A DNA stretch of 64,000 nucleotides from an uncultured delta proteobacterium (GTDB lineage Bacteria; Myxococcota_A; Polyangia; Palsa-1104): positions 76,314 to 140,313 of the forward strand of contig CAWAWS010000009.1 in NCBI GenBank assembly GCA_963785725.1, given 5' to 3'. A program made the translations under genes and the position numbers. This document shows, piece by piece, positions 38,373 to 64,000 of the stretch (positions are counted from its first letter, which is position 1; each line of letters begins with the position of its first letter). Under the pieces are notes generated by a model. It worked only from the letters and a program-made list of their open reading frames with translations, searched no databases and was not told the DNA's origin.

Positions 38373-38383
38373 GATACGAGGCC

Positions 38384-39205: not shown

Positions 39206-39225
39206 CAACGCACTTCGGGGGCACG

Positions 39226-42171: not shown

Positions 42172-42180
42172 CAATTTCTC

Positions 42181-42945: not shown

Positions 42946-43371
42946 TTACTCGCGCGTCGGCGTGACGGCGGCGGCGAGCGCGGCGAAGCTCTCGTCGTAG
43001 CGCCCGGTCTTGGCGTGCAAGCGAGCGAGGCGCGCGGCGAGCGGATGACGGCCGGGAATGCGCGCCGCTTCGGCGTACGCTTGGTCGGCGCCGGGAAAGT
43101 CGCCGCCCGCGGTCAAGACGTCGCCGAGCGCCACCAGCATGAGCCGACGCGCCGACGGGCGCAGCGCGGCGCGTAGGCCGCTGCGCAAAAGCTGCGCGGC
43201 GCGCGGCGGATCGGCACGCCCGACGGTGAGCGCGGCGCCGACGCGGGCCTCGGCGAACTCCGGCGCCAGCTCGACGGCGGCGGCGAACGACTGCGCCGCG
43301 GCCTCGACTTCGCCGGCGCGCAGCTGCTCGCGGCCGCGCGCGAAATAGCGCCGCGCCACCGTCGCCGACAT
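42946..43371 (-). CDS. TPR-repeat protein
   Basis: YFARGR..G..EAA..F..AVELAPEFAEA; LGDVL..GDF..A; LARLHAKTGRYDES. Confidence 0.78.
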   Translation of the reverse strand: MSATVARRYFARGREQLRAGEVEAAAQSFAAAVELAPEFAEARVGAALTVGRADPPRAAQLLRSGLRAALRPSARRLMLVALGDVLTAGGDFPGADQAYAEAARIPGRHPLAARLARLHAKTGRYDESFAALAAAVTPTRE

Positions 43372-43406
43372 CAGTCGACCTCGCGCCGCGACATCAGTCG
43401 ACCTCG
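43366..43406. repeat. 18-bp direct repeat (period 23) creating a 7-codon ORF MSRREVD
   Basis: cgacatcagtcgacctcg at 43366-43383 and 43389-43406. Confidence 0.9.
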
Positions 43407-44017
43407 AGCCAGGAGAAGCGATTGGCGGGCGACGCGGCTTCGTCCTTCTTGTCGCTGCTCGTCGTCGGCGGCGCGGGGGCTTGGTTCGGCGGCGTGGCCG
43501 GCGGCGCCTGATGCGACGGCGACGGCGCGACCGGCGGCGGCATCGGCTGCGGCGACGAAGCCGGCGTCGGGCTCGAGCGCGGCTCGGGCGGCATCGGTCG
43601 TGGCGCCGGCGTCGTCGCGGCCTGCGGCGCCGCTGTCGTCGGCAGCGCCGGCGCAGTCGTCACGACCGGCGGCGTCGGCGTCACCGGCATCGCTTGCGGC
43701 TCCGGCGCGCGCGCAGCTTCGATCGGAATCGAACGGCCGCCGGCGCGCACGTGCACGCGTCCGCCGGCCACTTCGAACAGCGCCAGCTCGGGCAGATCCA
43801 CATGCAGCTGCAGCCACGTCATCAGCTCGGCGAACGACAGGCCTTCGAGCTCGGTGCGCGCGTCGAGCATCGCCAGCGCGCCCGTCGCCGACGCCGGCGA
43901 GCCTTCGACGACGTACTCCTTGAACACGTAGGCCAGGATCTCTTGCAGCTGCTCGCGCGGATACTTGTCGAGCGCGCCGCGGATCTCGCCCACCATCTTC
44001 TTGACGTCTTTGCTCAC
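43394..44017 (-). CDS. Hypothetical protein with Pro-rich linker ending RFSWLEVD
   Basis: GTG at 44017 overlaps the upstream stop (GTGA) after GAGGGAG RBS. Confidence 0.72.
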   Translation of the reverse strand: MSKDVKKMVGEIRGALDKYPREQLQEILAYVFKEYVVEGSPASATGALAMLDARTELEGLSFAELMTWLQLHVDLPELALFEVAGGRVHVRAGGRSIPIEAARAPEPQAMPVTPTPPVVTTAPALPTTAAPQAATTPAPRPMPPEPRSSPTPASSPQPMPPPVAPSPSHQAPPATPPNQAPAPPTTSSDKKDEAASPANRFSWLEVD

Positions 44018-44703
44018 GACTCCCTCGTAGGCGCGCGCAAGCCGTCGGGCAAGTCGGCGCCGCCCAGCTCGCAGTCGACGAAGCGCGCTCCGTCGACGAT
44101 GGCGCCGGTCAGCGTGGCGCCGCCGAAGTGGCAGCGCACGACGAGCGCGCCCGAAAAGTCGGCGCGAAAGAGGTTGGCGCCGCGCAGATCGCACTCGATG
44201 AGGACGGCGCCGTCGAAGCGCGCGCGGGTCAGCTCGGCGGCGCCGTTGGGCGTCGGATCGGTGAAGCGGCACTTGACGAGCACCGCGCGCGCGGCGCGCA
44301 GGCCGTACAAGTTGCAGCCGACGAAGCGGGCGTTCGAGAGCTTGGCGCCTTCGATGTCGAGGTTGGCCGCTTGCACGCGCTCCCACGCCAACTGCTCGAC
44401 CAGCGCGCCACCGAGGCCTAGCTCGGTCAGGTCGCAGTCGACGGCGCTCGCGCGCAACATCGTGGCCTCGGCCAGCTGGGCGCGACGGAGGGTGACGCGG
44501 CTCAACGTCGTGCGCGAGAAGTCGACCGACTCCAGCGCGGCGCCGTCGAGCGTGCAGCGTTCGAAGGTCGCGCCCGAGAAGTCGCCGCCGCTGACGCGCA
44601 AGCCCGGCGCCTGCAAGTCGCGATAGGTGTGCCCGCGCAAGGCGCCGTCGCGCGCCAGATGCTGCAGCTGCTCGCGGCTCTCGACGGTGACGACGTCACT
44701 CAT
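44014..44703 (-). CDS. Pentapeptide-repeat protein
   Basis: Continuous A(D/N)LxxAxF-type repeats (GDFSGATFERCTLDGAAL, DLRGANLFRADFSGA); alternative start 44772. Confidence 0.9.
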   Translation of the reverse strand: MSDVVTVESREQLQHLARDGALRGHTYRDLQAPGLRVSGGDFSGATFERCTLDGAALESVDFSRTTLSRVTLRRAQLAEATMLRASAVDCDLTELGLGGALVEQLAWERVQAANLDIEGAKLSNARFVGCNLYGLRAARAVLVKCRFTDPTPNGAAELTRARFDGAVLIECDLRGANLFRADFSGALVVRCHFGGATLTGAIVDGARFVDCELGGADLPDGLRAPTRES

Positions 44704-44805
44704 CGCGCGGTCGCTCGCGGCTGCCGTCGCCGGCGCAGCTGCCGCGACGGCGTCGGGCGCGACCCTCGCCACGCGCCGAACGTCACGGCCGGCGCGCGCT
44801 TCATG

Positions 44806-45432
44806 CTACCGCCCGACGCGCTGCTGCTGCAGCCGCGTCTCTTCTTCGACGAGCTCGAGGATGCGCGCGACCACAGCGTGCTTGTCGACCTTGCCGCCGC
44901 CTTTGGCCGCCTTCGCCGCGGCGCCTTTGCCGGTCGCTTCGGCGTGCACGTCGGCTTCGACCTTCTCGGCCTGCTGCTCGTGCGCCGCGCCTTGCGACTC
45001 GCCGCCTTCGAGCGCGAAATGCAAGCCGCGCTGCGCCTGGCTGACGTGCGTGAGCTCGTGCGCCAGCAAGGCTTTGCCGAGCGCCGTCTTCGGATCCGAG
45101 CGCGGACCTTCACGCACGAGGATCATGCCGGTGTTGGCGATGGTCACGGCGTCGGCGCGGTGCGCCTTCGTCACCGCTTCGGCGAAGGGACCGCGGAACA
45201 GCCGCACGTCCGAGAAGCGGCCGCCGATGCGCTTCTCCATCTCCGACTGGGTGCCCAGGTCGAGCCGCTCGCCCGAGCCGGCATCGCCCACGACGATCTT
45301 GGAAAGCCGCGACGCGTCATACTTGTGCGCGATCTCCTGGCTCAGCTTGAGCGCACGCTGTTTGCGTTCGGCCTCGGTCAAGCGGGCGATTTCCGCCGCG
45401 TCGAGCCCTAGCCTATCGTCGTCACTCGCCAT
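44806..45432 (-). CDS. DUF4157 (eCIS-core) domain protein
   Basis: GSGERLD..MEKRIGGRFSDVRL..ADAVT..LLAHELTHVSQ (HExxH)..EQQAEKVE. Confidence 0.88.
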   Translation of the reverse strand: MASDDDRLGLDAAEIARLTEAERKQRALKLSQEIAHKYDASRLSKIVVGDAGSGERLDLGTQSEMEKRIGGRFSDVRLFRGPFAEAVTKAHRADAVTIANTGMILVREGPRSDPKTALGKALLAHELTHVSQAQRGLHFALEGGESQGAAHEQQAEKVEADVHAEATGKGAAAKAAKGGGKVDKHAVVARILELVEEETRLQQQRVGR

Positions 45433-46269: not shown

Positions 46270-46275
46270 GGGACG

Positions 46276-47143: not shown

Positions 47144-49334
47144 TCAGCGCCGCTTGTCGTGTCCTTTACTGCCGTGTTTGTCGTGCGCCTTCTCGGCCGT
47201 CACCACCACCGGCTTATCCGCGACGTGCTGAAACAGCTTGCCCGCCGCCGCGCACTCCTTCTCCGCCGCCTCCGCCAACAGCGCGTAATCGATCGACTGC
47301 TCCCGCTGCGCCGCGATATAGGCCGCCCGCAAGATCGCGTTCTTGATGTGTCCGCCCGACAGCTCGAACGTCTTGCCCAGCTTCGCGTAGTCGACTTCCC
47401 CGACCGGCGCGCGCGACGGAATCAGCGTCCGCCAAATCCGCGCCCGATCGACCGCCGTCGGAAACGGCACGACGATGTGATAGGCGATGCGCCGCTTGAA
47501 CGCCTGATCGATCGACGCTTCCAAGTTCGTCGCCAAGATCACGATTCCCTCGTAGCGCTCGAGCTGCTGCAGGAGAAAATTGGTCTCCATGTTGACGAAA
47601 CGATCGTTCGCCGTCTCCACCTTCGCCACGCGCGACGAGAACAGCGCGTCGGCCTCGTCGAAGAACAAGATCGAATGCGTCGACTTCGCCTGCACCAAGA
47701 TCTCGTTCAGGTTCTTCTCGGTCTCGCCCACGAACTTCGAGACCACTTTCGCCGGGTTGACGCGATAGAGCGACAGGCTCAGCTCGGACGCGATGACCTC
47801 GGCGGCCAGCGTCTTGCCCGTTCCCGGCTCGCCCGACAGGAGCACGACGAGCCCTTTTCCCGTCGGCAGCTTCTCGTTGAAGCCCCAGGTGTGCAGCACT
47901 TTGGCGCGATTGCGGCCGGCGGCGATGATCTCCTCGACTTGCGAGCGCTCGTCGGGCGGCAGGACGAGCACGTCGAGCGTCAGCGCGCCGTGGCGCGTGC
48001 GCTCGGCGTAGCCGGCCAAGTCGCCGCGCAGCTGCGCCTGCGCCGCCGTGTCCAAGTCCGCCATCGTCAACAGCGACGACGGGCCGCGCGCGACCGCCTT
48101 CGACACCGCGTACAAGACGGCGCTGCGAATCGAGCCGCCCGACAGCTCGTAGCGCTTGGCCAGATGGTTGATGTCGACGTCGTCGGCCAGCGGCACCGTC
48201 GGCAGGAGCAGCTGGCGCCAGATCGGCTCGCGCAGCGCGCCCGTCGGCACCTCCAGCAGCAGCCGCAACAGGACGCGGCGATCGAGCGTCGGATCGAGGC
48301 GTTCGGGCGCGGCCGTCGTCAGGATGACGAGCCCGTCGAAGCGATCGAGCGCGCGCAACAGCGCCTGCAGTCGCGGCGTGCCGGCGCCGCGGCCGCCGAA
48401 GAGCAGCTCGGCGCCGTCGAAGAGCACGACGGCATCGGCCAGCCGCGCCTCGAGGAACAGCTCGTCGAGCTCGCTCTCGAGCACGCGTCCGGCGTCGGCC
48501 AGGCGCGCGCCGTCGATAGTCGAACAGCTGTTTACTTAGCCGCTTGGCGAGCGCCGCGGCCAGCGTCGTCTTGCCCGTGCCCGGCCCGCCGACGAAGAGC
48601 GTGACCACGGCGCGCCCCGACGGCAGCAGGCGATCGTAACCCCAGGCTTGCAGCCGCGCGCTCAGCCCCGGCTGCGCGGCCAACAGCTGCTCGAGCTCGG
48701 CGCGCGCTTCGGCCGGCAAGACGACGTCGGCGAGCGCGACGTCGGGCCGGCTCAGCTTGGCGTACGTCGACGTCAGGCCCGTCGGATCCTGGCCGAGCAC
48801 GACGCGCGCCACGCGCGGCGGCAGCTTGAGCTCGCAGGCGAGCAGGTTGTCCCGGGCGTCCGGCCGCGCGCGGTCGAGCGTCAGGAGCCGATGCGCCAGC
48901 AGCGGCGCGTCGGCTCGGAAGCGCGCCCGCGCCCGCAGCCGCGCGGCGACGCCGTCATGATGCACCTGCACGACGAGCCCGACGTCGAGCCAAGGATGAA
49001 ACGCCGTGCCCGACAGGCGCGTGTGCAGCTTGCCCAGCGTCGGATCGAGCTGCGCCGCCGCCACATGCGTAAGGACGTGCACGTCTTCGTCGTCGAGCCC
49101 GAAGCGCTGCTGCAGCTGGACGATTCCCGGCGGCGCCGCCGTTGCCGACAGCCGCGCCGCCAGCGTGACGTCGAGCGCCGCGCCGCGCTCGGCCAGCGTG
49201 CGCGCCACATCCGCCTTGTCCTCGGCGACGGCGAGCGCGCGCTCGAGCCGCAGCCGCACCCGCGCGCAGACGGCCTCCAAATACTCGGCGTCGTCGGCGA
49301 ACGGCGCCGCGTCCGTCCGCACGCGGTTCACCAC
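47144..49334 (-). CDS. Afp15/Pvc15-like eCIS AAA+ ATPase with two ATPase modules (apparent frameshift near 48515)
   Basis: N-terminal 'LQQRFGLDDED..DPTLG..APLLAHRLL'; Walker A GGPGTGKT and GEPGTGKT; VSKFVGETEKNL, FFDEADALF, LLQQLE, IDQAFKRR, ELSGGHIKN. Confidence 0.85.
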
Positions 49335-49540
49335 TACGAAGTCTTGTTGGTCTGCGTCACGCCCTGCGGCTGCTCGTAGTATTCGTCGGTGAGCTCGCGC
49401 GACTCGATGGTGTCGCCGAGCGCCTCCTCCAAAAACTTCGTCTCGGCGACGCAGCTTTGGCCCTTGATGCACTTGACGAGCACTTTGACCTCGCCGTCGG
49501 GCCCGATGGTGATCTCGAGCTCTTTGCGTTCACTCGACAT
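49334..49540 (-). CDS. DUF2997 small protein
   Basis: ITIGPDGEVKV..GQSC..TKFLEEALG..RELTDEYY. Confidence 0.85.
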   Translation of the reverse strand: MSSERKELEITIGPDGEVKVLVKCIKGQSCVAETKFLEEALGDTIESRELTDEYYEQPQGVTQTNKTS

Positions 49541-49543
49541 GGC

Positions 49544-49941
49544 TCAACCCCACTTGCTGACGGTGAGCTTGACCGAGCCGTCGGCCTGCACCGCGTTGGT
49601 ATCGATGGTGTAGCCCTGCTCTTCGACGGCCGCCACGACGCGCTGGTAGGCGTACTTCGCGTTCAGCTCCTTGACGACCTCTTCTTCCTTCAGCCCTTTG
49701 GTGGTCTCGACGCCCCACCAATCGGCGTCCAGCGAATAGTTGCCGTCCTGCTTGCTGCACGACGCCGACGTCGTATTTGCCCATGTCGATGGACGATCGC
49801 CGCCTTCATCGTCTGCCCGCGATAGCCGCGCACGACGACGCCCGCTTCGTCGTGCTGATACTTCCAGCCCAGCTGATCGAGCGCCTTCTTGAGCGCCGTC
49901 AGATCGTTGATCTTCGTCGCGACTTTGGTGAAATGCGACAC
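49544..49941 (-). CDS. DUF1257 / Ycf35-family protein (apparent frameshifts near 49755-49795)
   Basis: MSHFTKVATKINDLTALKKAL..VRGYRGQT..YDVG..DGNYSLDADWW..YAYQRV..QGY..DGSVKL. Confidence 0.85.
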
Positions 49942-49944
49942 GAC

Positions 49945-51509
<1,565 letters not shown>

Positions 51510-51517
51510 TGGATTCC

Positions 51518-53515
51518 TCAGCTCTCTACGACTTCGCGCAGCTTGCGGAGGAGACCTTTGGCATCTTCGGTGCGATCGACCGAGACGTTGATGGCGTCTT
51601 CCAGCGTGCGGACGGCGGCGTGATCGGGCACCGAGCTACCATGCTCGGCGACCAGATCCTTCGCCAGGAGAATATTGGTGCGCAGCTCGCTCAACATGTC
51701 GTTGATGCCGCTGTAGGCCTCTTCGGCGCGATGCTTGATCTCGACGATGATGGCGCTCGATCCGTTGGTCGCCGGCGCCGCGGCCGCACCGCTGTGCGCC
51801 GTTTGCGCCGCCGCCAGCTCGCGCTCGAGTCGCGTCACCTCGTCCTCGAGATGCTGCAGCCGCGCTTCGGCCGGCACGACCACCTCCGACGTCGAGTCCA
51901 TCAGCTGCGGATGCGCCGCTTGCCGCGCCTGCTCCGCCGTCGCGTTGGCCATCGCCGAGCGCGTCCGCTCGAGCTCGAGCTGCAATTCCGCCGCGCGTTT
52001 TTTCTCGCGATCGGCTTCGACCATCAAGCGATCGGCCGTCTGCGACGACGCGTCGCGCGCCTTCAACGCCTCGGCCAGCGCCTCTTCCGCTTTGACGCGC
52101 GCCGCTTCCGCCTTCGCCAGCTTCTCTTCGGTGCGCGAGCGGGCCGCGTCGATCGTGCCCTTCGACTGCAGCGCCGACGCGCGCTCGACGTCGAGCTTGG
52201 CCAGCTGATCTTCCAGCTGCGAGCGCTCGCGCTCGACCGTCTCCAGCCGCTCTTGCGCGCGACCCCGCTCGGTCTCGGCGCGACGCAGCTCGACCTTCAC
52301 TTCGCGCAGCTCCGTCGCCAGCCGCATGTGCTCGTCGCTGCTGCCGGCCGCGCCGCCGCCGCCTTCGCTCATCATGCGCGCCAGGCGCCGCTGCTCCTCT
52401 TCGAGGCTCTCCACTTGATGCTGCTGGCGGATGACCTTGTCGCGCAGCTCGTCGCGCTCGTTCTTCATGGCCGCGGTCTCGCGCTGCGTCTTCTCGCGCT
52501 CGCCGCGCAGATCCTTGACCGCCGTCTCCAGCGCCGTCAGACCGACCTTGCGCTCTTCGAGCATGCGCTCCTGCTCGCTGATGACCTCGCGCAGCTGATC
52601 GAGCTCGGCCACGCGCGAGTTCAGCTCTTTCCAGCCTTCATCCTTGGTCTTCTGGATGTCGGCCATCTTGGCGCGCATCTCGTCGGTCATGGCCTTGGTG
52701 CGCTGGACGTCTTCGTGCGACCGCTCGAGCTGCCGATCGCGCGCTTGCACTTCGTCGCTGAGCTCGTCGACGCGCCCCTTCGCCGTCAAAAACTCCTGGC
52801 GCAGCTGCTCCGACTCTTCGCGCAGCTCGTTGCCGACCTTGGTGAGCGCGTGGATCTCGTCGTCGGCGAGCGACTTCTCGCGCTGCGCCTGCGCCAGCCG
52901 CTCGCGAAACGCGGCGCTCTCGGCGCGCATACGCTGCAGCTCGGCCGTGCTCGTCTCGGCGCGCGTGTTGGCGGCTTCGAGCTCCTGCATCGCCTCGCGC
53001 AGCCGCGCCGCCAGCATGTCGCGCTCTTGCGCCGTCTGCTGCAGCTCTTGGTTCGTCTGCTGCATCAGCGCCGCCGGATTCAGCCCGCCGCCGCCGCCGT
53101 ATGCATTCTGCAGCGACGGATCGACCTGCACGCTGTCGCCGGGCAGGCTCTGCGCTTCCATCGCCGCCGTGCGCGGCTTCTGCGACTGCGACACGGCCGG
53201 CGACTGCTGCTGCGCCACCGGATCGGCCGTCTCGACGAAGCGCACCTGCAGCGTCCCGCAGCGCACGACGTCGGCGTGGTTGAGCGCCTGCTTCTGGATG
53301 CGCACTTCGTTGACGAACGTGCCGTTGGACGAGCCGAGGTCCTCGACCATCCAGCGACCGGTCGTATACGAAATCTTGCAGTTCTTGCGCGACACCATGG
53401 CGTCGTCGGTGCGCACGGCGCAGTCGGCGCCGCGGCCCAAGAAGACGCCTTCGGCGAGCACGTCGATCGAAGAATCCCGCCCGGTTCCGTCGCGATACAA
53501 GAGCTTGGCGCCCAA
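51518..53515 (-). CDS. FHA domain plus long coiled-coil protein
   Basis: FLGRG..VSRKN..DLGSSNGTFVNE followed by about 450 aa of heptad-rich E/R/Q sequence. Confidence 0.88.
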   Translation of the reverse strand: MGAKLLYRDGTGRDSSIDVLAEGVFLGRGADCAVRTDDAMVSRKNCKISYTTGRWMVEDLGSSNGTFVNEVRIQKQALNHADVVRCGTLQVRFVETADPVAQQQSPAVSQSQKPRTAAMEAQSLPGDSVQVDPSLQNAYGGGGGLNPAALMQQTNQELQQTAQERDMLAARLREAMQELEAANTRAETSTAELQRMRAESAAFRERLAQAQREKSLADDEIHALTKVGNELREESEQLRQEFLTAKGRVDELSDEVQARDRQLERSHEDVQRTKAMTDEMRAKMADIQKTKDEGWKELNSRVAELDQLREVISEQERMLEERKVGLTALETAVKDLRGEREKTQRETAAMKNERDELRDKVIRQQHQVESLEEEQRRLARMMSEGGGGAAGSSDEHMRLATELREVKVELRRAETERGRAQERLETVERERSQLEDQLAKLDVERASALQSKGTIDAARSRTEEKLAKAEAARVKAEEALAEALKARDASSQTADRLMVEADREKKRAAELQLELERTRSAMANATAEQARQAAHPQLMDSTSEVVVPAEARLQHLEDEVTRLERELAAAQTAHSGAAAAPATNGSSAIIVEIKHRAEEAYSGINDMLSELRTNILLAKDLVAEHGSSVPDHAAVRTLEDAINVSVDRTEDAKGLLRKLREVVES

Positions 53516-53529
53516 AGGCTCCCTCCCGT

Positions 53530-54030
53530 TCAGATGCGGTAGACCATCTCGGTGGTGCCGACGCGAATGACGTCACCGACGGCGAGCTTGCGGCGCGCCA
53601 CCTTCTCGCCGTTGACGTAGACGCCGTTGGTCGAGCCGAGGTCGGCGAGCTCGTAGCCGTCGTCGACCTTTTTGATGCCGATGTGTTTGCGCGAGACGCC
53701 GGTGTCGGTCAAGAGCACCGTGTTGCCGGCGGTCGATCCGATGGTGGTGACGTCACGATCGAGCCCGACCGTCTTGCCCGACAGCGGACCGGACACGAAC
53801 TCGAGCTCGGCGCGCAGCTCGCGCAGCGGCGTGCCGCAGAACTTGCAGACCGTCCAGCTCGGCAGCATGACGCGGCCGCAGTTGCGGCACGGCGCCTCCG
53901 CCGGCTGTTTGCGCCGCAAAACCGCCACGAGCAGCAGCACCAGCCCGAGCGCCACGACGCCGCCGATGATCGCAGGCAGCGCCCACGTCGGAAGCTGTGC
54001 GAGCGAGGCCGGTTGCGGCTGCCATGGCAT
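53530..54030 (-). CDS. TM - zinc ribbon - FHA protein
   Basis: TM helix, CRNC..CKFC, IGS..VSRKH..DLGSTNGVYVNG; TGATG-coupled to the upstream gene. Confidence 0.88.
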   Translation of the reverse strand: MPWQPQPASLAQLPTWALPAIIGGVVALGLVLLLVAVLRRKQPAEAPCRNCGRVMLPSWTVCKFCGTPLRELRAELEFVSGPLSGKTVGLDRDVTTIGSTAGNTVLLTDTGVSRKHIGIKKVDDGYELADLGSTNGVYVNGEKVARRKLAVGDVIRVGTTEMVYRI

Positions 54031-55472
54031 CAGGTGATCGACTTGAACTTGAACTCGGTGCGGCCGAGGCGGAACTGATCGTTGTCGACGAGCTCGTGCT
54101 CACTGACCTTCTTGTCGTTGACGACGATGCCGTTGGTCGAGCCGAGGTCGAACAGCTTGTAGTTGCCGCCCTGGAAGCGCACTTCGCAGTGGTGTGACGA
54201 CATGAACTGATCCTCGACTTTGACGTCGCAGTCGGCGCCGGTGCCGATGAGCGTGCGCGCCGGCTTGAGCTTGAACGTCTGGTCGGCGTATTTGCCGCTC
54301 GTGGCCACGATCCAGCCGACGGCGACCGTGCCCGAGCCGGCGGACATGTCGAGCGCCATCGTCTTCATCGGCTGCTGCGGCTGCGGCGCGACCGGCTTCG
54401 GCGCTTCGGGCGCGGCGACCGCCATCGGCTCCGGCTTCTCGCGGAAGACGAGCCAGGCGATGAGCCCGATGAGGCCGACGACGCCGAGCACGATGATGAG
54501 CCACAGCCACCAGCGCGTCTTGGTTCCGCCCGGCGGCACGTACTCTTTGACGCGCGGCGGGAACGGCATCGTCAGCGTGTTCGAGTAAGCGCCGCCGTTG
54601 TCGCCGCCGACGATGATCTGCAGGTCGTGCTTCTTGTTGTCGCCGCCGACCAGCGCGATCTCGAACGAGGCGACATACTGCTTCTTGATCTCGTCGATGA
54701 CGTTGTTGAAGTGGTTGCCGATGTCGCTCGCCGTCTTGCACATGCGCTCGGTGCCGTTCGACTGCTTGGCGAGGATGCCGAGGTTGCGCGTCTTCGACGG
54801 GTCGAACTCGTTGTAGCCGATGGTGTCGATGACGATGTTGCCCTCGGCGGCGCGCTTGCCCTTCGACGTGAAGATGCGCGGATCCATGTCGGCGTTGATG
54901 CCGTCGGAGAAGACGACGATCAGTTTGCGCTCGTTCTTGGGCACGGCCGCGAGCTGATCGATGGCGATGGCGAGCGCGTCGAGCATGTGCATCTCGGCGC
55001 CCGAGTCGGAGTCGATGGCCATCAGCTTGGCCGCCGATTCGACGTCGGCCGCGACCGTCAGCTGCTCGGTCAGCCGCTTGGTGTCGCCGGCGTAGCCGAT
55101 GAGGCCGACCTTCGACTTCGGCGGCAGCGCGTCGGCGAGCGCGGAAATGGCGCGCTTTTCGTCCTCGATGACGCCCGACATGGCCGAGCCGACCTCGGCG
55201 ACGATGACGACGTTGACCGGCTCCTTGGTCTCGTCGAAGCCGATGAGCGACGTCGAGCCGCCCTGTTCGGCCGAGTCGATGCTGAGCCGGAAGTCTTCCT
55301 TGACCTTGCCGCTCGGCACGTGGCCGTCGCGGTCGACCAGCGACAGGTAGAAGCGCACCGTCGGCATGAGGTGGGCGTCGACGCGCTCGAGGTGCAGCTT
55401 GTCGGCGGCGCGCGCGCTGCCGGTTGCGAGCGCGACCAGAGTGAAAGCGAGGGCGAGTACGGACTTGCGCAT
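54030..55472 (-). CDS. Signal peptide - VWA - TM - FHA protein
   Basis: Signal peptide; degenerate MIDAS (AEVGSAMS), VVFSDG, IDTIG; TM WWLWLIIV; FHA IGT..MSSHH..DLGSTNG. Confidence 0.85.
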   Translation of the reverse strand: MRKSVLALAFTLVALATGSARAADKLHLERVDAHLMPTVRFYLSLVDRDGHVPSGKVKEDFRLSIDSAEQGGSTSLIGFDETKEPVNVVIVAEVGSAMSGVIEDEKRAISALADALPPKSKVGLIGYAGDTKRLTEQLTVAADVESAAKLMAIDSDSGAEMHMLDALAIAIDQLAAVPKNERKLIVVFSDGINADMDPRIFTSKGKRAAEGNIVIDTIGYNEFDPSKTRNLGILAKQSNGTERMCKTASDIGNHFNNVIDEIKKQYVASFEIALVGGDNKKHDLQIIVGGDNGGAYSNTLTMPFPPRVKEYVPPGGTKTRWWLWLIIVLGVVGLIGLIAWLVFREKPEPMAVAAPEAPKPVAPQPQQPMKTMALDMSAGSGTVAVGWIVATSGKYADQTFKLKPARTLIGTGADCDVKVEDQFMSSHHCEVRFQGGNYKLFDLGSTNGIVVNDKKVSEHELVDNDQFRLGRTEFKFKSIT

Positions 55473-55475
55473 GAT

Positions 55476-56201
55476 TTAGCTCATCGACTTGAACTTGAAG
55501 TTGACGCGACCGAGGCGAACGCTGTCATTGTCGATCAAATCGGTGGTGGTGACCTTCTTGTCGTTGACGAAGGTGCCGTTCGTCGAGCCCAAGTCGGCGA
55601 TGCGGAAGCCGCTCGACGTCGACGTGAACTCGGCGTGCCGACCGCTGATCGACGGCTCGCGCAGGACGACGTCGCAATCGGCGGCGGTGCCCACGACCGA
55701 GCGCCCCTTGAGCTGGAACAGCTCGCCCGACTGCGGACCGTCGAGCGGCACCAGCCAGCCGACGCCGTTGCCGGTGGCGACGCCGCCCGACGGCGCGTCC
55801 ATCGCCATCGTGCGCATCTTTTGTTGTGGCTGACCGCTGCTCGCGACCGGCGCTTGCGGAGCCGCCGCCGCCGGCGCCGCCGCGTCCGACCAGCCGCAAT
55901 ACGGGCACTGATCCCAGCTCGCATGCAGCTTCTCGCCGCAGCTGGGGCATTGCTTCTTCTTGGAGAAGAGTCCCATTTTCGCTGCCTTCTGCTTTCCGTC
56001 CGCGCCCGCCGCCGAGCCCGCTTTGGCCTTCTTGGCGACCTCTCCGGCTTTACCCGCGGCGTTGGCGTATTGCCCTTTGACCTGCTTCAGCCGATTGATG
56101 TCGCCCTTGATTCCGCCCTTGATCGTCTCGACACGAAAGACCTTCGTGCGAACGAATTCGAACGGGGATTTGAGCGTCTTGATGAGGCCGTCGAGGAACA
56201 T
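55476..56201 (-). CDS. Zinc ribbon - FHA protein with amphipathic Lys-rich N-terminus
   Basis: CPSC..CPYC; GWLVPLDG; VGT..ISGRHA..DLGSTNGTFVND. Confidence 0.88.
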   Translation of the reverse strand: MFLDGLIKTLKSPFEFVRTKVFRVETIKGGIKGDINRLKQVKGQYANAAGKAGEVAKKAKAGSAAGADGKQKAAKMGLFSKKKQCPSCGEKLHASWDQCPYCGWSDAAAPAAAAPQAPVASSGQPQQKMRTMAMDAPSGGVATGNGVGWLVPLDGPQSGELFQLKGRSVVGTAADCDVVLREPSISGRHAEFTSTSSGFRIADLGSTNGTFVNDKKVTTTDLIDNDSVRLGRVNFKFKSMS

Positions 56202-56219
56202 TAATCGACATTCATCCTA

Positions 56220-57783
<1,564 letters not shown>

Positions 57784-59236
57784 TTACTTTTTCTCCGGGT
57801 CCTTCTTCTCATCGGTAGCGGGACCAGCTGCGGGCTTGTCCGAGACCGGCGTGCCGATTCGCGTCTTGCGCTCATCCGATAGAGACGGCTTGGGCGCTTC
57901 AGTCGCAGGTGTAGCCGCTTTTTTCGGGTCCGGCTTCTTTTCGTCGGCCTTCTTGGCCTCGGCCGGCGCCGCTTTGGGCGCGTCGGGCGCCTTCGGCGCG
58001 TCGGGCGCTTTGGGCGCGTCGGCCGGCAGCTTCTGCGCTTCGACCATCATCGTGCGCTGCGGCTTCAGCGTTTGCGTCGACAGGCGCAGCATCTCTTCTG
58101 TCTTCATGACCTCGAACGCCTGCGTATTGGAGACTGCGCCCATTTCGCGCGCGCCGCCATCGAAGCCGCCGGCCTTGGCCGAGCGCGGTCCTTCGCGGCC
58201 TTCGACCGGCGCCGTGTCGGCGCGCGGCGCCTTCGGCAACGGCGGCTTGACCCGCGGCATCGGCTGGAACCCGTCGTCGAGCTCGAGCGCCATCGTCTTG
58301 CGCTTCTGCTGCTCGCCCGCCGGCGCCGTCTCCGCCTGCTTCTGCTGCTCGAGCGCGCGCTTCAAGTCCTCTTCGGACGTGATCGCCTCGTCGGCTTCCG
58401 ACGCGAGACCGATGCCGCCGATGACGCCCGCCGCCGATGGCCATGAACTCGTTCAGGTCGTCGCGCGGCCCTTCGGCGGCGAAGCGCAGGTAATACTGCA
58501 CGTTCGCCGGCTTCTCCATCTGCAGGATCTCGTGGATGCGAATGACCGCTTCCGGCGAAATATCCTGATACGAGACCGGCATCTCGACGACGCAGGTGTG
58601 CGCCAGATTGACCGGCGGCAGGACGACCGTGTCGATGCCGATGTCGGAGGTGACGCCGATGCGCCAGCCGCGGAACGGCCAGACGTTCTCTTTCACCTCC
58701 GGCTCGTGGCCGGTGAACATCGAGATGAACAGCTTGAGGCCCTTGACGGTGCCGCGGATGCGATAGAGCTCGATGGCGCGACGAATCAGCCGCCGCTTCT
58801 TCTCGATCGGCCAGTCTTCCTCGAGCACCATCGCCGACCACGAGGCCAGCCAGGGCAGGAACTTCTCGGGCGCCTCGTACGGATCGAAGAAGGTGTGGAT
58901 GACGTCGAGCTGCTCCTCGATCGTCGAGAACAGGTGCTGCAGAATCCACAGGAAGTCGCGGAAGAAGTTGCGCCCGTTGACGTCGGCGCGCTGATAGATC
59001 GACGGCAGCCACTTGACGTAGCTCTCGCGCGACACCGTCAGCGTGACCTTGTCGCCCGCATAGATCATCTGACCGCGCGCCGGCTTTTGCGCCAGCACCG
59101 TGTCGCGCGTCTCGTACGACTCCGAGAAGCGAATGTCGTCGACGACGAGGCCGGCGTTCTCGACGAGCAGCCGCGCTTTGCGCAGCGGCATGCCGACGAC
59201 TTCGGGCATGCGAACGAGCGCTCGCTGCTGCGTCAA
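57784..59236 (-). CDS. PASTA domain fused to phage-tail (P2 gpI-like) baseplate protein with disordered tail (apparent frameshift near 58428)
   Basis: PASTA 'MPEVVGMPLRKARLLVENAGL..VLAQKP..G..VTLTVS'; tail domain 'WLPSIYQ..FDPYEAPEKFLPWLASW..RRLIRRAIELYRIRGT..EKPA'. Confidence 0.85.
57965..58025 (-). repeat. Coding 18-bp tandem repeat (DAPKAP)x3
   Basis: Direct reading of the minus strand. Confidence 0.75.
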
Positions 59237-59289
59237 CAGCGAGTCCTGCTACGCGGGCCGATCGCCGCGTTGTCGCTGCGCTCCGCTGC

Positions 59290-62200
59290 TCACGCACCAG
59301 CGTGCGCTCCGCTGCGGTGCTCGCTCGGCCTTGCGCTCGGCCCGCTTGCGACGGACTCGCAGTGCACGACGGGGCGCGGTGAACTAAAGTCGTCACTGAC
59401 GATCTCCTCGCGGACGCGCTCGACCACGGCGATGTTGACCAGGTAGATGAGCTCGTGCGGCTCGAGGCGCACGTTCTCGACGGCGACGCGCTTGTCCTCG
59501 TCGAAGATGGTGATGGCGTCGATCACTTCGACGCCGGGCACGTCTTCGACGAGGTGCGCCAGGTCGGTCTTGTAGACGGCGCGGCCGAATGCCCAGCCCT
59601 TGCCGTCGCGACCACCGACGAGCGGATGCAGATAGCGGCGCAGGCGATCCTCGATCTCGCGCTTGACGCGATCCGACTGCCCGACGGTGCGGCGCACCAG
59701 CGTCACCTTGATCGAGAACTCGACGTAGCCGGCTTTGATGACGTCGACGACGGTGCCGACCAAGCGGCGCTCGTCGAGGTAGTTCTTCACGAAGCGCAAC
59801 AGCTCGGGCGCCGGCACGAGGCGCTTGGTCAGGTCGAGGTTCTTCTCGTCGCCGCGCGGCACGACGACGACTTGCACCTGCCCGTCATGCTTCTGCGACG
59901 GCAAGCACTTGGCGCGCGCGACGCCCGTCGACGAACGCAGCGCCAGCGTCTCGAAGTCCTCGGCGGTGACGGCGCGGTCGCGCGACTTGAGCAGCATCGG
60001 CGCGCGCGACTTCGCTTCGTCGATCGTCTCGGCGTCGGAGCCACCGGCGGCGGGGATGACGTTGTAGCACTTGTCGATGTAAGCGATGGCGCGGGTCAGC
60101 TGCGTCAGCGTGCCGCCGTTGACGTTGCCGCGCACGCCGCCGCCGATCTGGTAGCGCCGCGCGACGACGTTGTTGCGCCCGCTGGCCGGCATCATGCCTT
60201 TGATGCCGTCGCCGAACTGGATCTTGCCCGTGATCGGGTTGCGCACGTAATGGCGCGAGCGCGGCCCCGAGTCGAAGAAGCTCTCGACCGAGCGCCAGCG
60301 CACCCAATAGCCGACCTCTTGGCCTTCGCCTTCGGCGCGCACCGGATCGTCGCCCAGGTCGAGCAGGTCTTCGGGCGCCGGCTGATCTTGCTCTTTGACT
60401 TCGATCGCTTCGCCTTCGAGCAGCGGGCCGTGCGACACGCCGAACGTCTGAATCGGCGAGCCGTCCGACGAGCCCATGATCTCGTCGCGAATGGTGACGA
60501 CGTTGGCCGACTCGACCGTGTTGGTGAGGATGCGCTGAATGCGCGGCGGCTTGACGTAGCCGCCCATCTCCAAGCGCGCGCGAATCCAGTAGCGATCTTC
60601 GGTGAACTTCATCGTCTTCTGATGATCGTCGGGGCCGACGAAGTCGACGAAGCCGGAGACGGTGAAGTTCTTGGTGCCGTCCATGACCACGAGCGGCGAC
60701 CAGTTGCTGCCGTCGAAGTATTCCCACACGACGCGCTGCTCGGCTTCCCACACGGCGTCGCGATCGGCGTAGTAGTTGCGCAGGAACTCGGCGTCGGCGC
60801 GATCGTCTTTGTGCTGCGCGACGACGTCGGACAAGAGCACGTAGAGCGAGATCGGATCGTTCGGCAGTTTGCCGTTCCAGCCGAGATAGAGCGCGGCGCC
60901 TTCGTCGGGCACGGCGCTGAACGGCTGGAACGGACGATAGTCGACCTTCGCTTCGTCCGAGTGATCGCGATAACGGAAGTCGTTGTACGAGAGCACGTGC
61001 TTCACGTGCTGCAGGTCGGCGCGGTACTTGAAGCCGATCGACTTGAACGACGGCGGCTTGAGCGGGCGATCGTCGCGCCAGACCCACTTGTCGCCGTCGA
61101 GCATGTAGCAGCCGGGCAGGCCGAAGTCGCCGTTCTCGACGCGCGCGCGCACCCAAAAGTTGTCTTCGCCGTTCACTTCGCCGGCGTGCATGTCGGCGGG
61201 CACGCGGAAGGTGACGACGCCGGTCTTCGTGAACGCGTAGGTCGTGTCGACGAAGCCCCACGTGTTCTCGGGCATGCGCAGCGTGCCTTTGGCGGTCGAC
61301 TTGCCGAGCACGCGCCACTTCTTGCCGTCGAAATATTCCCACGACAGGACCAGCTCTTCGGACGCCTTCGGCTCCGGCGCCACCGTCGCGTCGGAGATGA
61401 CGATCTCGACGCGCACTTCCGCTTCCGGCTGCGACAGCATCTCGCGCGACGCCAAGTACAGACACTGATCGATCTTCGGCTGCTGCCCGAGCGGGAAGAC
61501 GTTCTTGCCGAGATCGAGCGCCAGGAACACGCCGCCGTCGAGGTTGGCGAACGCCACATCGGGCACGACACCTTCGCCCGACGTCTCGATGATCGCCTTG
61601 GCCGTGTCGATCTCGGTCTCCCACGGATTCTGCGGCACTTCGGCGAGCCGCCCGCGCACCCAATAGTCCTCGACGCCGTGCACCTGCGTCGACGCCATGT
61701 CTTGCGGACCGAAGAACACGACCTCGCCGCGCTCGACCTCGACCTGCATCATGCGCAGCTCGCGCCAGCGACGGCCGTTCCAATATTCCCACTCGAGCAG
61801 GCGCGCCAAATCGCGGCCGCCATGATCGGGCGCCGTGACCATGAGCTTGAGCAGCGACGAATCCGACACCGCCTTCAAGCGCTGATCGCCCAAATACAAG
61901 AAGCGATCGATGCGGTCGGCGCCGGCGAACGCTTCGAAGCCTTCGGTGCGCGCGCCTTGCAGGAACGGCGAGTTGTCGGCGTAGGTCTCGTTGAAGTACG
62001 AGAAGCAGCGGTCGAGCGGCGCGCCGACGACCACCAGCTCCTTCTGCGTCTCGAAGATGATCGTGTCTTCGTCGGCCGCCTGCGCCGTCGCGATCTGCGT
62101 GCCTTCTTTGACGATCTGCTTCTCGGCGCCCTCGACGAGGTCGAACGTGATGAGCGCGCGCGCCGGCTGCGGCGAACGCAGCCGAATGCCGATCATGTTC

Positions 62201-62406
62201 AAGAACGCGAGGTAGTTCTTCTCCGGGACGCGATTGAGCCGATACAGGATCAGCTCCGTCATCCACGCCGTCAGCTCGACGATCGTGATGCCCGGATCGG
62301 ACGGATTATGGTTCGTCCAGTCGGGGCAATAGCGCGGAATGAGGCGCATCGCCTCGGCGACGATATCGGCGTAGGTGCGGTCGTCGAGCTTCGGCGCTGG
62401 AATCAC
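59290..62406 (-). CDS. Baseplate J-like wedge protein (Afp11-like)
   Basis: PKLDDRTY..YCPDWTNHNPSDPGIT..YRLNRVPEKN..IQFGDG..GGGVRGNV..RAVTAEDFE..LHPLVGG..GWAFGR. Confidence 0.93.
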   Translation of the reverse strand: MIPAPKLDDRTYADIVAEAMRLIPRYCPDWTNHNPSDPGITIVELTAWMTELILYRLNRVPEKNYLAFLNMIGIRLRSPQPARALITFDLVEGAEKQIVKEGTQIATAQAADEDTIIFETQKELVVVGAPLDRCFSYFNETYADNSPFLQGARTEGFEAFAGADRIDRFLYLGDQRLKAVSDSSLLKLMVTAPDHGGRDLARLLEWEYWNGRRWRELRMMQVEVERGEVVFFGPQDMASTQVHGVEDYWVRGRLAEVPQNPWETEIDTAKAIIETSGEGVVPDVAFANLDGGVFLALDLGKNVFPLGQQPKIDQCLYLASREMLSQPEAEVRVEIVISDATVAPEPKASEELVLSWEYFDGKKWRVLGKSTAKGTLRMPENTWGFVDTTYAFTKTGVVTFRVPADMHAGEVNGEDNFWVRARVENGDFGLPGCYMLDGDKWVWRDDRPLKPPSFKSIGFKYRADLQHVKHVLSYNDFRYRDHSDEAKVDYRPFQPFSAVPDEGAALYLGWNGKLPNDPISLYVLLSDVVAQHKDDRADAEFLRNYYADRDAVWEAEQRVVWEYFDGSNWSPLVVMDGTKNFTVSGFVDFVGPDDHQKTMKFTEDRYWIRARLEMGGYVKPPRIQRILTNTVESANVVTIRDEIMGSSDGSPIQTFGVSHGPLLEGEAIEVKEQDQPAPEDLLDLGDDPVRAEGEGQEVGYWVRWRSVESFFDSGPRSRHYVRNPITGKIQFGDGIKGMMPASGRNNVVARRYQIGGGVRGNVNGGTLTQLTRAIAYIDKCYNVIPAAGGSDAETIDEAKSRAPMLLKSRDRAVTAEDFETLALRSSTGVARAKCLPSQKHDGQVQVVVVPRGDEKNLDLTKRLVPAPELLRFVKNYLDERRLVGTVVDVIKAGYVEFSIKVTLVRRTVGQSDRVKREIEDRLRRYLHPLVGGRDGKGWAFGRAVYKTDLAHLVEDVPGVEVIDAITIFDEDKRVAVENVRLEPHELIYLVNIAVVERVREEIVSDDFSSPRPVVHCESVASGPSARPSEHRSGAHAGA

Positions 62407-62431
62407 GCGAATACCTCAGCGAAGGAGCGCA

Positions 62432-62833
62432 TCACGATTCATCGCTCCGACGGATGTAGAAGGGATAGACGAGATTGCGCGAGCTGTTGGTGGCCCGCAC
62501 TTTGTAACGAATGTTGATGTCGAGGCGGTTGGCGTCGTCGCGGTTGGGATCGGCCGAGGCCTCGACGTCCTCGATGCGCGGCTCCCACTTCGTCAGCGCC
62601 TCGATGGCAAAATGGGCCGCCAAGCTCGCCGTGTTCAAGTTGTTCGGCGCGTAGACGAGATCGTGGATGCTGCAGCCGAACGTCGGGCGCATGACGCGTT
62701 CACCCGGCGCCGTGCCGAGGATGATGTGGATCGACTGGCGGATCGATTCGTCCTGCTCCGACAGCGCAATGCCGCCGGCGCGATCCACTTCGACGGGGTA
62801 CTTCCACCCCTTGCCGAGAAAATTACGCGCCAC
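62432..62833 (-). CDS. gp25/GPW baseplate protein (Afp9-like)
   Basis: GTG start after GAGGGG; FLGKGW, ILGTAPGERVMRPTFGC, WEPRI, NLVYPFY. Confidence 0.95.
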   Translation of the reverse strand: MARNFLGKGWKYPVEVDRAGGIALSEQDESIRQSIHIILGTAPGERVMRPTFGCSIHDLVYAPNNLNTASLAAHFAIEALTKWEPRIEDVEASADPNRDDANRLDINIRYKVRATNSSRNLVYPFYIRRSDES

Positions 62834-62844
62834 GTCCCCTCGCT

Positions 62845-63039
62845 TTAGATCGCCGTCGCGTTCAAGCGCCCCTCGATGAAGCGCTTGCACGCGCGACATT
62901 CGAGGCGGAGACGCTGATCGTTCCGGTCGACCAAGATCTCGCCTTTGCTACAGAACGGGCAGCGCAGATTGCGATCGCGGCCGGCGGCGACTTCGTCGAG
63001 CACGTCCTGCCAGACCATCGCCGCTTCTTCGTCCACCAC
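62845..63039 (-). CDS. Small zinc-ribbon protein
   Basis: CPFC and CRAC pairs; GGGGGAGAG RBS; first gene after the promoter. Confidence 0.7.
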   Translation of the reverse strand: MVDEEAAMVWQDVLDEVAAGRDRNLRCPFCSKGEILVDRNDQRLRLECRACKRFIEGRLNATAI

Positions 63040-63076
63040 GCTCTCCCCCGCTCGCTCCCGCCTTCAAGAGCGGGAA

Positions 63077-63141
63077 ATTATAGTCAGCGTTGCGTTTTTT
63101 GGTCAATGAGAAGCGGCCGAAAACCTGTGACAACTTGTGAC
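63077..63141 (-). promoter_or_regulatory. Sigma70 promoter of the baseplate/FHA/AAA operon with upstream direct repeat
   Basis: Minus strand TTGACC (63106-63101)-18 bp-TATAAT (63082-63077); GTCACA-N4-GTCACA at 63141-63126. Confidence 0.75.
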
Positions 63142-63194
63142 TTTCGTAGCCGTTTGGGCTTCGGGCGGCGCGCGGTCGCCGACGCCTCGCGGCG

Positions 63195-64000
63195 TCAGCT
63201 CGACGACTTGGCGTCGCGACGAAACTTGAACTCGGTGCGATAGCCGCCGGACGTGCCGGCGTGGACGTAACGATGTTTGACGGCGGTCACATAATATTTG
63301 CCGTTGAAGCGCTTGTCCTGGACGTTGACGCTGACGATGATGCCCGGCTTCATCGACGGATTGCCTTTGCAGGTGCCGTCGCCGGTGATGAAGCTCATGA
63401 GGCGCTCCTGCAAGATCGACTTGGCGATGTTGTCGGCCTCTTCCTTCGACGACACCGGCGACTCGACCTGGATCTGCAAGACGCCCGAGTGCGTCGCGTC
63501 GGCGACTTGCGAGCCGGTCTTGTCGCCGAGCTTCGACGACGACGGCTTGGCGCTGCCGACGATCTCCTTCTTCTTGTCGTGATCCCAGCCGTAGACGCGC
63601 ACTTCGGAGACCTGATTGGCCGTCGACAAGCGCGGCATGAACTTCTCGAGCACGTTGGCGCCCGACAGTCCGAACTCGAGCGTGATGCCGGAGTCGGCAT
63701 CGATGCGCTTGCGGAAGTTGAGCTCCTTGTCGCTGACGAAGATCTCGAAGCCGAGCCGCGCGGCGCGCAGCCGCAAGAACTCCAGATCGCTCATGTTGTG
63801 CTGGTAGACGTGCTCGTACTTCGTCGTCGGCGGCGTGTCGCCGAACTTGGCCGTCAGGCCGTACGCCTGGCAGACCTTGTCGACGATGTCCTTGTCGGTC
63901 ACCTGCTTGTGCGCCACCGACTTCTTGCCGCGCGTCAGCCGATGCAGCTGGTTGAGCGCGCGAATGACCGACGCGAGCCGGCCCGCGCGAGTCGTAGATC
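63195..64000 (-). CDS. Phage late-control D / VgrG gp27-like hub protein (5'-truncated by window edge)
   Basis: LHRLTRGKKS..TDKDIV..QHNMSDLEFL..AARLGF..VRVYGWD..GKYYVTAVKH..YRTEF. Confidence 0.88.
   Translation of the reverse strand, partial: STTRAGRLASVIRALNQLHRLTRGKKSVAHKQVTDKDIVDKVCQAYGLTAKFGDTPPTTKYEHVYQHNMSDLEFLRLRAARLGFEIFVSDKELNFRKRIDADSGITLEFGLSGANVLEKFMPRLSTANQVSEVRVYGWDHDKKKEIVGSAKPSSSKLGDKTGSQVADATHSGVLQIQVESPVSSKEEADNIAKSILQERLMSFITGDGTCKGNPSMKPGIIVSVNVQDKRFNGKYYVTAVKHRYVHAGTSGGYRTEFKFRRDAKSSS

Follow-up and report, generated by a model that had tools for sequence, protein, structure and literature searches.

The window analyzed here, a stretch of 64,000 nucleotides (nt) from an uncultured delta proteobacterium (GTDB lineage Myxococcota_A; Polyangia; Palsa-1104; contig CAWAWS010000009.1 of assembly GCA_963785725.1, positions 76,314 to 140,313), carries part of a contractile injection system (CIS) whose baseplate genes are followed by genes for four FHA proteins and a Ycf46-type ATPase. 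The source genome (G000) has a size of 8.9 Mb and is 88% complete, and the window ends where its contig C9 ends. Thirteen minus-strand genes follow one another from position 63039 down to 47144, in the order Zn-ribbon, gp25, baseplate J, PASTA plus Tail_P2_I, a 520-amino-acid (aa) "fiber," four FHA proteins, an AAA ATPase, DUF1257, DUF2997, and an ATPase with a winged-helix domain (WHD-AAA-AAA). This order, proposed together with its domains in a sequence-only reading of the window, was borne out by Pfam and by the mapping of intact orthologues. The same reading had put all gaps at no more than about 50 nt, which holds for 11 of the 12 (−1 to 25 nt), the gap between baseplate J and PASTA being 80 nt as assembled.

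Six of the 13 genes contain small frame errors: the PASTA-tail, "fiber," Ycf46, DUF1257, and Afp15-like genes are each split over frames, and the baseplate J gene reads through its own stop. The orthologues are intact in a genome of the same genus (G003), and in comparison with related soil-metagenome contigs, 8 of the 12 indels listed (12 of 137) are extra bases of the window, located in Ycf46 and DUF1257. Since the G003 orthologues are intact and the related contigs lack the extra bases, these sequence comparisons make assembly errors more likely than pseudogenes. For structure and family tests, the G003 orthologues were used in place of the frame-broken genes of the window.

A promoter-like site of the sigma-70 type (TTGACC-18-TATAAT, 63077..63106, minus strand; 11/12 consensus match) precedes the Zn-ribbon gene (62845..63039, minus strand). 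This first gene of the baseplate unit encodes a 64-aa protein with weak Zn-ribbon matches and occurs in 36 of the 37 loci that have 8 kb of upstream sequence. Sites with at least 9/12 matches stand ahead of it in 46 of 67 relatives versus 1 of 67 control stretches. A conserved promoter site is thus present as claimed, but it does not head the operon: it is internal, because GPD plus nine further CIS genes lie ahead of it in the same orientation, running onto contig C13.

Structural genes of the injection system

Contig C13 overlaps the end of the window and carries the front half of the CIS, i.e., Pvc16, two sheath genes, a double and a single gp19 tube gene, a conserved 127-aa gene, a long low-complexity gene, CIS_tube-LysM, and GPD. 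The 3' part of the GPD/gp27 hub gene, which corresponds to the N-half of Afp8 and has no fused gp5 spike, still lies in the window (63195..64000, minus strand; PF05954) and continues on C13. GPD measures 350 aa, and the gp5 spike is a separate 271-aa gene that stands alone on C7. Of the genes expected beyond position 64000, the sheath, tube, and LysM genes were therefore located on C13 and the spike on C7. C13 and the window together hold core genes of an extracellular CIS (eCIS), namely, tube, sheath, LysM/Afp7, Afp8, gp25, Afp11, and Afp16, with the gp5 half on C7. The gene set of the CIS is complete: no structural gene is missing, and the set is distributed over up to six modules. Both sheaths belong to Phage_sheath_1, and the first one is 78 to 94% identical across the order.

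A spike-less CIS was considered and rejected, since 37 of 41 related genomes have a gp5 domain, mostly at a separate locus; in 16 of 80 loci, the spike gene stands between GPD and the Zn-ribbon gene. In G000, the orphan spike module (C7:894919-897327; L072, L075) consists of gp5 (271 aa), a Pro-rich gene (290 aa), and a gene for a divergent 199-aa membrane protein. The Pro-rich partner occurs in 40 of the 201 genomes of a phylum sample, 37 of which are carriers of the TssK-like gene described below; it had no Pfam-named Atlas cluster, no solved relative, and no NCBIfam match. In loci with Kofleriaceae titles (L123, L126, L131, L142, L153, L157, L161, and others), GPD and the Zn-ribbon gene are separated by a tandem pair of gp5 genes, of which the second is sometimes long (up to ~1000 aa). 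An orphan PAAR gene (C30:58909-59193; second PAAR match on C33) is located away from the spike in G000. The same type adjoins the spike in several relatives, i.e., in 5 of 19 spike loci, with a PAAR-cluster gene in one more. The double-domain gp19 tube gene (C13, ~8450-9350; second copy at C7:796553-797455) is single-domain in distant lineages. Between the tube and LysM genes, in a position typical of a tape measure or cargo gene, lies a gene for an Ala/Pro-rich protein of ~1160 aa (C13:1973-5455), which is highly variable among relatives; all Atlas matches of the long low-complexity protein were below 0.9.

The Zn-ribbon gene is followed on the minus strand by the gp25/Afp9 baseplate wedge (62432..62833; PF04965), baseplate J (Afp11/Cis11; 59290..62406; PF04865, and TIGR02243 on the G003 orthologue), and a PASTA plus Tail_P2_I wedge protein of the TssG/Cis12 kind (57784..59209, in two frames; PF03793 and PF09684, with TIGR02242 and a weak CIS12 match for the orthologue). 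The true end of baseplate J is probably near 59393, since relatives stop after ~1003 aa. The C terminus of the PASTA-tail protein is of low complexity, variable, and absent in distant lineages, and its Thr motifs were rejected as docking sites for this reason. The hallmarks had been read as those of a CIS of the Afp/PVC/MAC type. A complete CIS it is, but the best solved match of baseplate J is the Streptomyces CIS (9gtp, E value of 1.6e-83), compared with 2.5e-4 for Afp11. Judged by these matches, the baseplate is of the Streptomyces type (lineage II) and not of the Afp/PVC/MAC type. The marks of lineage I, i.e., an Afp8 with fused gp27 and gp5 and a baseplate of the Afp11/Afp12 type, are missing, given the split of gp27 and gp5 and the poor Afp11 match.

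Criteria for the lineage II subtypes IIb and IId are given in the portion of the dbeCIS survey drawn on here (PMC6899500). The single contiguous afp8 of subtype IId (Streptomyces) is not found, as afp8 is split here and in the relatives. Shared with subtype IIb are a single afp11, the gp27/gp5-split afp8, and divergent afp12- and afp13-like genes (weak CIS12 and CIS13 matches, both below the cutoff). Subtype IIb also has afp6 and lacks afp10 (PAAR). Here, no afp6 or TetR gene was seen in the gene maps (afp6 was not the object of a family-level search), PAAR is absent from the locus of the window but occurs in the spike loci of several relatives, and the Afp15 orthologue is patchy. By composition, the system resembles subtype IIb.

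The gene that had been labeled fiber-like (Fib; 56220..57783, minus strand, in two frames) turned out to encode something else. An AlphaFold2 model of the 520-aa G003 orthologue (pLDDT 77, pTM 0.38) comprises a beta shoulder, a helical neck, and a beta-sandwich head. Its top Foldseek match is TssK (5y0e, E value of 4.7e-7), and VIA-align superposed IglD over residues 20 to 320 (Z 11.1, root mean square deviation [rmsd] 10.4, 229 residues aligned) and matched the head with modules of the carbohydrate-binding module (CBM) families CBM35 and CBM6 (Z ~11-12, rmsd ~3; for CBM35, Z 11.7, rmsd 2.8, 125 residues aligned). In its predicted structure, the "fiber" is a protein of the TssK/IglD fold with a conserved CBM6/35-like head, and it supplies the TssK-fold connector that characterizes a type VI secretion system (T6SS). 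Across 12 distant genomes, the identity of the head (47%) is close to that of baseplate J (46%), and that of the shoulder is 62%. Conservation at the level of baseplate J suggests that the head has a constant partner, be it a self protein or a universal glycan. The eBAP3 fibers of eCIS are comparable in position and fold: in the part of PMC12923769 that we cite, the fibers behind Tail_P2_I are TssK-like, Tail_P2_I itself is TssG-like, and the C-terminal modules are diverse. The fiber gene follows Tail_P2_I in both cases, but the head is conserved here like a core part. A complex prediction with residues 196 to 520 of the TssK-like protein, FHA1, and FHA3 gave a score of 0.03 (mark, 0.32), which counts neither for nor against binding. 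A headless stand-alone paralogue consisting of shoulder and neck (335 aa, 45% identical) is encoded at C16:149784-150791 and is also present in G001, G003, G004, and G006.

FHA proteins, Ycf46 cassette, and neighboring genes

According to Pfam, motif counts, and topology, the four FHA genes on the minus strand are of different kinds. FHA1 (55476..56201) is a soluble Zn-ribbon-FHA protein, vWA-FHA (54030..55472) consists of a signal peptide, a vWA domain, a transmembrane (TM) helix, and an FHA domain, and FHA3 (53530..54030) of a TM helix, a Zn-ribbon, and an FHA domain, being fused to vWA-TM in distant lineages. The fourth is an FHA-coiled coil protein (51518..53515). The motifs GR, SxxH, and NG are associated with phosphothreonine binding in FHA domains, and the FHA-fold domain of MxiG, a ring protein of the type III secretion system (T3SS), does not bind phosphothreonine, as reported in the portion of PMC3162421 referred to here. 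The Arg after Gly is missing in 65 of 65 FHA1, 53 of 53 vWA-FHA, and 61 of 61 FHA3 sequences, while SxxH is kept in all; FHA3 has GS for GR, and its S-R/K-x-H retains the basic residue after Ser. The canonical binding motifs are found in the FHA-coiled coil, with GR and SR in 60 of 60 sequences, followed by His in 39 and Asn in 21. The proposed phospho-regulation thus has a canonical reader in the FHA-coiled coil but not in FHA1, vWA-FHA, and FHA3, and the missing phosphate-binding Arg in three of four FHA proteins fits a structural role better than signaling.

Ahead of the FHA domain, a K/R-T-x-x-hydrophobic motif, which we take to resemble an FHA ligand site, is present in 50 of 51 FHA1 and 52 of 53 vWA-FHA proteins whose sequences allowed anchoring. 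The Thr of the motif shows no variation among 39 aligned FHA1 sequences. A TM helix precedes the FHA domain in 55 of 55 vWA-FHA and 55 of 61 FHA3 proteins as well as in 7 of 7 distant vWA-TM-FHA3 fusions, versus 0 of 65 FHA1 proteins. By topology prediction, vWA-FHA and FHA3 are single-pass membrane proteins. Their genes directly follow the baseplate genes, a position that cisA has in S. coelicolor. CisA is a bitopic protein required for firing (PMC12237407, as far as drawn on here).

The FHA-coiled coil gene is the first of a four-gene cassette. It is followed by a p97/CDC48-like AAA+ ATPase (49945..51509, minus strand, several frame errors; PF00004, with Walker A and B intact in G003), which we take to be of the Ycf46 type, Pfam having returned AAA only, and whose closest solved relative is p97. 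The DUF1257 gene (49544..49941, minus strand, with a frame error; PF06868) and the DUF2997 gene (49334..49540, minus strand; PF11211) complete the cassette. The DUF1257 model (pLDDT 89) had no Foldseek match at an E value of 0.001, and its best Z of 6.7 (KA1-like domains) is at background level. In distant lineages, the order FHA-coiled coil-Ycf46-DUF1257-DUF2997 is fixed, and the cassette is often divergent from a pentapeptide gene and near PP2C. The Afp15-like WHD-AAA-AAA ATPase (47144..49330, minus strand, two frames; PF22977 and PF00004) ends the run. Its orthologue (at least 60% identity) occurs in 11 of 41 genomes and in 0 of 22 of family f3, with paralogues in 38 of 41, and the gene adjoins the operon in 7 of 47 loci. 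An Afp15 AAA+ ATPase in the locus counts among the core traits of eCIS in dbeCIS, but, being patchy and rarely beside the operon, this second AAA gene is not a defining part here, and the pair of different AAA+ modules that the window seemed to combine does not hold as a trait of the system.

Beyond the 13 genes, DUF4157 (eCIS_core), pentapeptide-repeat, unknown, and TPR genes (42946..45432, minus strand; Pfam of orthologues) face a convergent run on the plus strand. In many relatives, the DUF4157 gene and then the pentapeptide gene come directly after DUF2997. The plus-strand run (37435-42906) consists of two PPC-like lipoproteins and a Ser/Thr kinase (37435..41262; lipoproteins at 37435-38372, split over frames, and 38384-39205; kinase from 39226, split) and of a PP2C phosphatase (42181..42906; PF13672) that converges on the TPR gene. 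PP2C also adjoins the FHA-coiled coil cassette in distant lineages. Homologues of the lipoproteins are found directly before Pvc16 in G168, G202, G150, and G155, directly before PP2C in G202, G138, G150, and G100, and altogether in 46 of the 51 carriers of the TssK-like gene. The lipoprotein-kinase-PP2C block, although outside the 13-gene run, belongs to the same gene set, the link of the kinase being weak.

Conservation, linkage, and descent

The survey of locus conservation covered 80 loci, the best of 233 found in species genomes, with titles such as Polyangia, Myxococcales, Kofleriaceae, and Haliangiales. All 65 loci with enough upstream DNA contain gp25, baseplate J, and PASTA-tail genes. 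In the 47 with enough downstream DNA, each FHA gene is present in 45 to 46 loci, Ycf46 in 45, and DUF1257 and DUF2997 in 43 each. Among the 41 loci with enough of both flanks, 39 combine baseplate J, vWA-FHA, FHA-coiled coil, and Ycf46, and the synteny of baseplate, FHA, and Ycf46 genes is accordingly kept across relatives. Among metagenome contigs, 14 of the 16 that are long enough reach Ycf46. Within the order, 39 of 41 genomes gave a match to baseplate J, with 64 to 90% identity for the best full-length ones.

The TssK-like gene occurs in 38 of 151 genomes of a class sample, in five families only, and in 51 of the 201 genomes of the phylum sample (one of them weak). In the latter, DUF1257 was found in 47 of 51 carriers versus 4 of 150 non-carriers, and the FHA1-type gene in 47 of 51 versus 0 of 150. 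G018 (97% complete) and G189 (100%) jointly lack all tested modules; G016 is without FHA1 and Ycf46, and its gene ends at a contig edge. In distant lineages, the TssK-like gene often has FHA1 and the fused vWA-TM-FHA3 gene behind it. The TssK-like and DUF1257 genes are on different contigs in 43 of 47 genomes and on the same contig in 4 of 47, once 160 kb apart. The "fused" operon is therefore linked here and in a few families, but the baseplate block and the Ycf46 cassette lie apart in 44 of the 47 co-carrying genomes. In G084, ~3 kb separate the Ycf46-DUF1257-DUF2997 triad from Pvc16-sheath, both being on one strand. Trees of baseplate J and Ycf46 for 24 genomes keep the members of families f1, f2, and f3 together (distance rho 0.85), and this congruence speaks for vertical descent, not for shared function. 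By these comparisons, the system is inherited vertically and in single copy in several uncultured myxobacterial lineages and their relatives.

Mode of action and rival explanations

To our interpretation that this complete lineage II CIS of the Tail_P2_I/eBAP3 type, vertically inherited, works attached to the envelope of its own producer, we give an even chance of being right. Cell anchoring, already raised as a possibility on the basis of the window, receives indirect support from the TssK fold, the bitopic FHA proteins, and the linked lipoproteins. From gene content, folds, topology, and co-occurrence, we infer all physical contacts, and also the direction in which the machine fires, as follows. 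The baseplate would assemble in the cytoplasm, carrying TssK-like trimers, and the vWA-TM-FHA and TM-FHA proteins, together with soluble FHA1, would form an inner-membrane dock for the TssK-like protein. The FHA domains without Arg may be structural rings, like the FHA-fold domain of MxiG in the T3SS, and the periplasmic vWA domain and the PPC-like lipoproteins could extend into the envelope. The Ser/Thr kinase and PP2C may switch the threonine of the K/R-T-x-x-hydrophobic motif in FHA1 and vWA-FHA and thereby gate the machine. The FHA-coiled coil, the one canonical reader, might recruit the Ycf46-DUF1257-DUF2997 ATPase to the dock for remodeling or recycling of the machine, a job done in T6SS by ClpV. 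Firing is more likely to be directed outward, in contact killing during predation, than inward. In its full form, in which the vWA/FHA and lipoprotein dock replaces TssJLM, Thr phosphorylation gates firing, Ycf46-DUF1257-DUF2997 replaces ClpV, and the whole is an ancient core organelle of many uncultured Myxococcota families, the model is possible though doubtful.

Several observations weigh against an envelope-attached machine or weaken its support. The head of the TssK-like protein has a carbohydrate-binding fold, which fits a released particle, and so do the eCIS markers DUF4157 and Afp15 as well as the PASTA domain, PASTA being known to bind cell wall fragments. The lipoprotein profile also matches 21 non-carriers, all weakly except G138. 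The genome holds ~58 kinase-like and 8 PP2C-like loci, so that a nearby kinase is weak evidence, and no close orthologue of the kinase at 39226 was found among the compared relative loci. The FHA1 profile, built from carriers, favors carriers, and because the carriers are kin, co-occurrence partly reflects clade history; congruent trees result whenever two genes are inherited vertically. G138 (93% complete) retains the FHA-coiled coil/Ycf46 cassette, the lipoprotein, and PP2C without a sheath or TssK-like gene, and G173 (92%) has a sheath and a divergent TssK-like gene without FHA1 and DUF1257. Finally, the DUF1257 family also occurs in Synechococcus (control) and, without the system, in G136, G041, and G064.

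The last of these points would also suit a separate stress or protein-quality module made of FHA-coiled coil, Ycf46, DUF1257, and DUF2997, adjacent to the CIS in a few families, with only FHA1 and vWA-FHA3 belonging to the CIS. This explanation, which is compatible with the others and in our estimation rather unlikely, would account for the separation of cassette and TssK-like gene in 44 of 47 co-carriers, for the cassette without CIS in G138 and the CIS without cassette in G173, and for the occurrence of the triad in cyanobacteria and, in another order, in G136. It does not sit well with the spacing of 3 to 14 nt kept in 39 of 41 loci, with the second arrangement in G084, with the one lipoprotein family that flanks both blocks, or with the joint absence in G018 and G189.

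A released eCIS is unlikely. Here, the TssK-like protein would be a short fiber whose CBM head, together with PASTA, binds conserved glycans of the prey wall, and FHA, vWA, kinase, PP2C, and lipoproteins would form a sensing circuit that times production or release rather than a dock. The CBM6/35 fold of the head and the presence of DUF4157, Pvc16, and Afp15-like genes are consistent with it. In the passages cited, eBAP3 plus Tail_P2_I fibers are described as eCIS fibers (PMC12923769), and an eCIS of marine Myxococcota with a top-expressed tube gene is read as a released predation weapon (PMC11937823). However, the head shows no diversification, the system is of single copy, vertical descent, and split loci, and the loss of the phosphate-binding Arg from three of four FHA proteins fits structure better than signaling.

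By analogy with Streptomyces, a cytoplasmic CIS might instead be recruited to its own membrane under stress and fire inward, in regulated cell death or in a developmental role; the bitopic FHA proteins would then take the part of CisA. The closest solved baseplate (S. coelicolor 9gtp), the bitopic proteins encoded after the baseplate genes, and the housekeeping-like conservation agree with such a function; the TssK-like protein with its head domain, the separately encoded spikes (two in tandem in the Kofleriaceae-titled loci), and the linked lipoproteins, which point to contact with the outer envelope, make it quite unlikely. A prophage remnant or decayed locus, suggested by the frame errors of the window, is barely credible, given the intact relatives, the related contigs without the extra bases, the eCIS-type Pvc16, CIS_tube, and DUF4157, the conservation across 39 of 41 genomes of the order, and a TssK-like gene for which no relative was found among viral contigs or in phage records (no search covered capsid and terminase families).

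Known CIS are distinguished chiefly by what holds them at firing, i.e., the membrane complex of the T6SS, a thylakoid anchor, CisA, or nothing, if they are free. In T6SS, the Fha-PpkA-PppA(-TagQR) pathway provides control by FHA protein, kinase, phosphatase, and lipoprotein. The envelope-attached CIS that we favor shares with T6SS the TssK-fold baseplate protein, FHA proteins, a Ser/Thr kinase, PP2C, lipoproteins, and a vWA domain, but it has phage-type single-gene sheaths, gp19 tubes, LysM, and Pvc16 in place of TssB/TssC sheath genes. The lack of TssJLM and ClpV in the window had been remarked on, and TssM is indeed not required, as it is present in only 7 of the 51 carriers of the TssK-like gene and missing in 44. 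With the S. coelicolor CIS and CisA (9gtp; PMC12237407, to the extent considered), the system has in common the closest baseplate J, the Tail_P2_I wedge, and bitopic genes after the baseplate. Unlike the latter, it belongs to a diderm host and has a TssK-like protein with a CBM head, split GPD and gp5, two sheath genes, membrane proteins of the vWA/FHA type, and additionally the Ycf46 cassette, lipoproteins, and PP2C. The phage-like protein-translocation structures or eCIS of metagenome-assembled genomes of marine Myxococcota likewise come from uncultured members of the phylum and have a gp19 and sheath cluster (PMC11937823). The portion of that paper used here interprets them as a released Afp/PVC-like weapon and does not mention FHA, Ycf46, or anchoring. 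Possibly, they belong to the same family, which would then be strongly transcribed in situ.

The structural core is of a known kind, and around it stands a set of membrane, signaling, and ATPase genes. The sequence-only reading knew of no description of the baseplate-FHA-Ycf46 architecture, and none was found in the literature within our coverage, outside of which lie most subscription papers and several survey supplements that could list such loci. The term FHA has zero occurrences in the main texts of PMC8213781, PMC6899500, PMC12923769, and PMC12998442, as has PASTA in that of PMC12923769. The locus offers concrete candidate genes for another route of anchoring, regulating, and recycling an eCIS-type tail. 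In abundant uncultured bacteria of soil and water, the system behaves as part of the core genes and not as a mobile weapon. Since the uncharacterized Ycf46-DUF1257-DUF2997 triad is tied to a defined machine, its function becomes testable; if the full model were true, the machine would represent the first substrate class for this module of cyanobacteria and plastids. Even a merely released eCIS with a large regulatory entourage would still constitute an undescribed, vertically inherited subtype with split loci.

Some further genes of the locus and the genome deserve mention. A canonical T6SS with its own TssC and TssM is encoded at a separate locus of the same genome (C22:53900-61963; L225, L226). 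A lysine-2,3-aminomutase-like radical SAM gene (C13:11537-12931) adjoins Pvc16 in 8 mapped genomes. Two plus-strand genes at 45565-47112 break the run between the Afp15-like and DUF4157 genes; they encode an acidic 234-aa protein of unknown type and a 2-oxoacid dehydrogenase acyltransferase-like protein, and the former gene accompanies the Afp15-like gene in several relatives.

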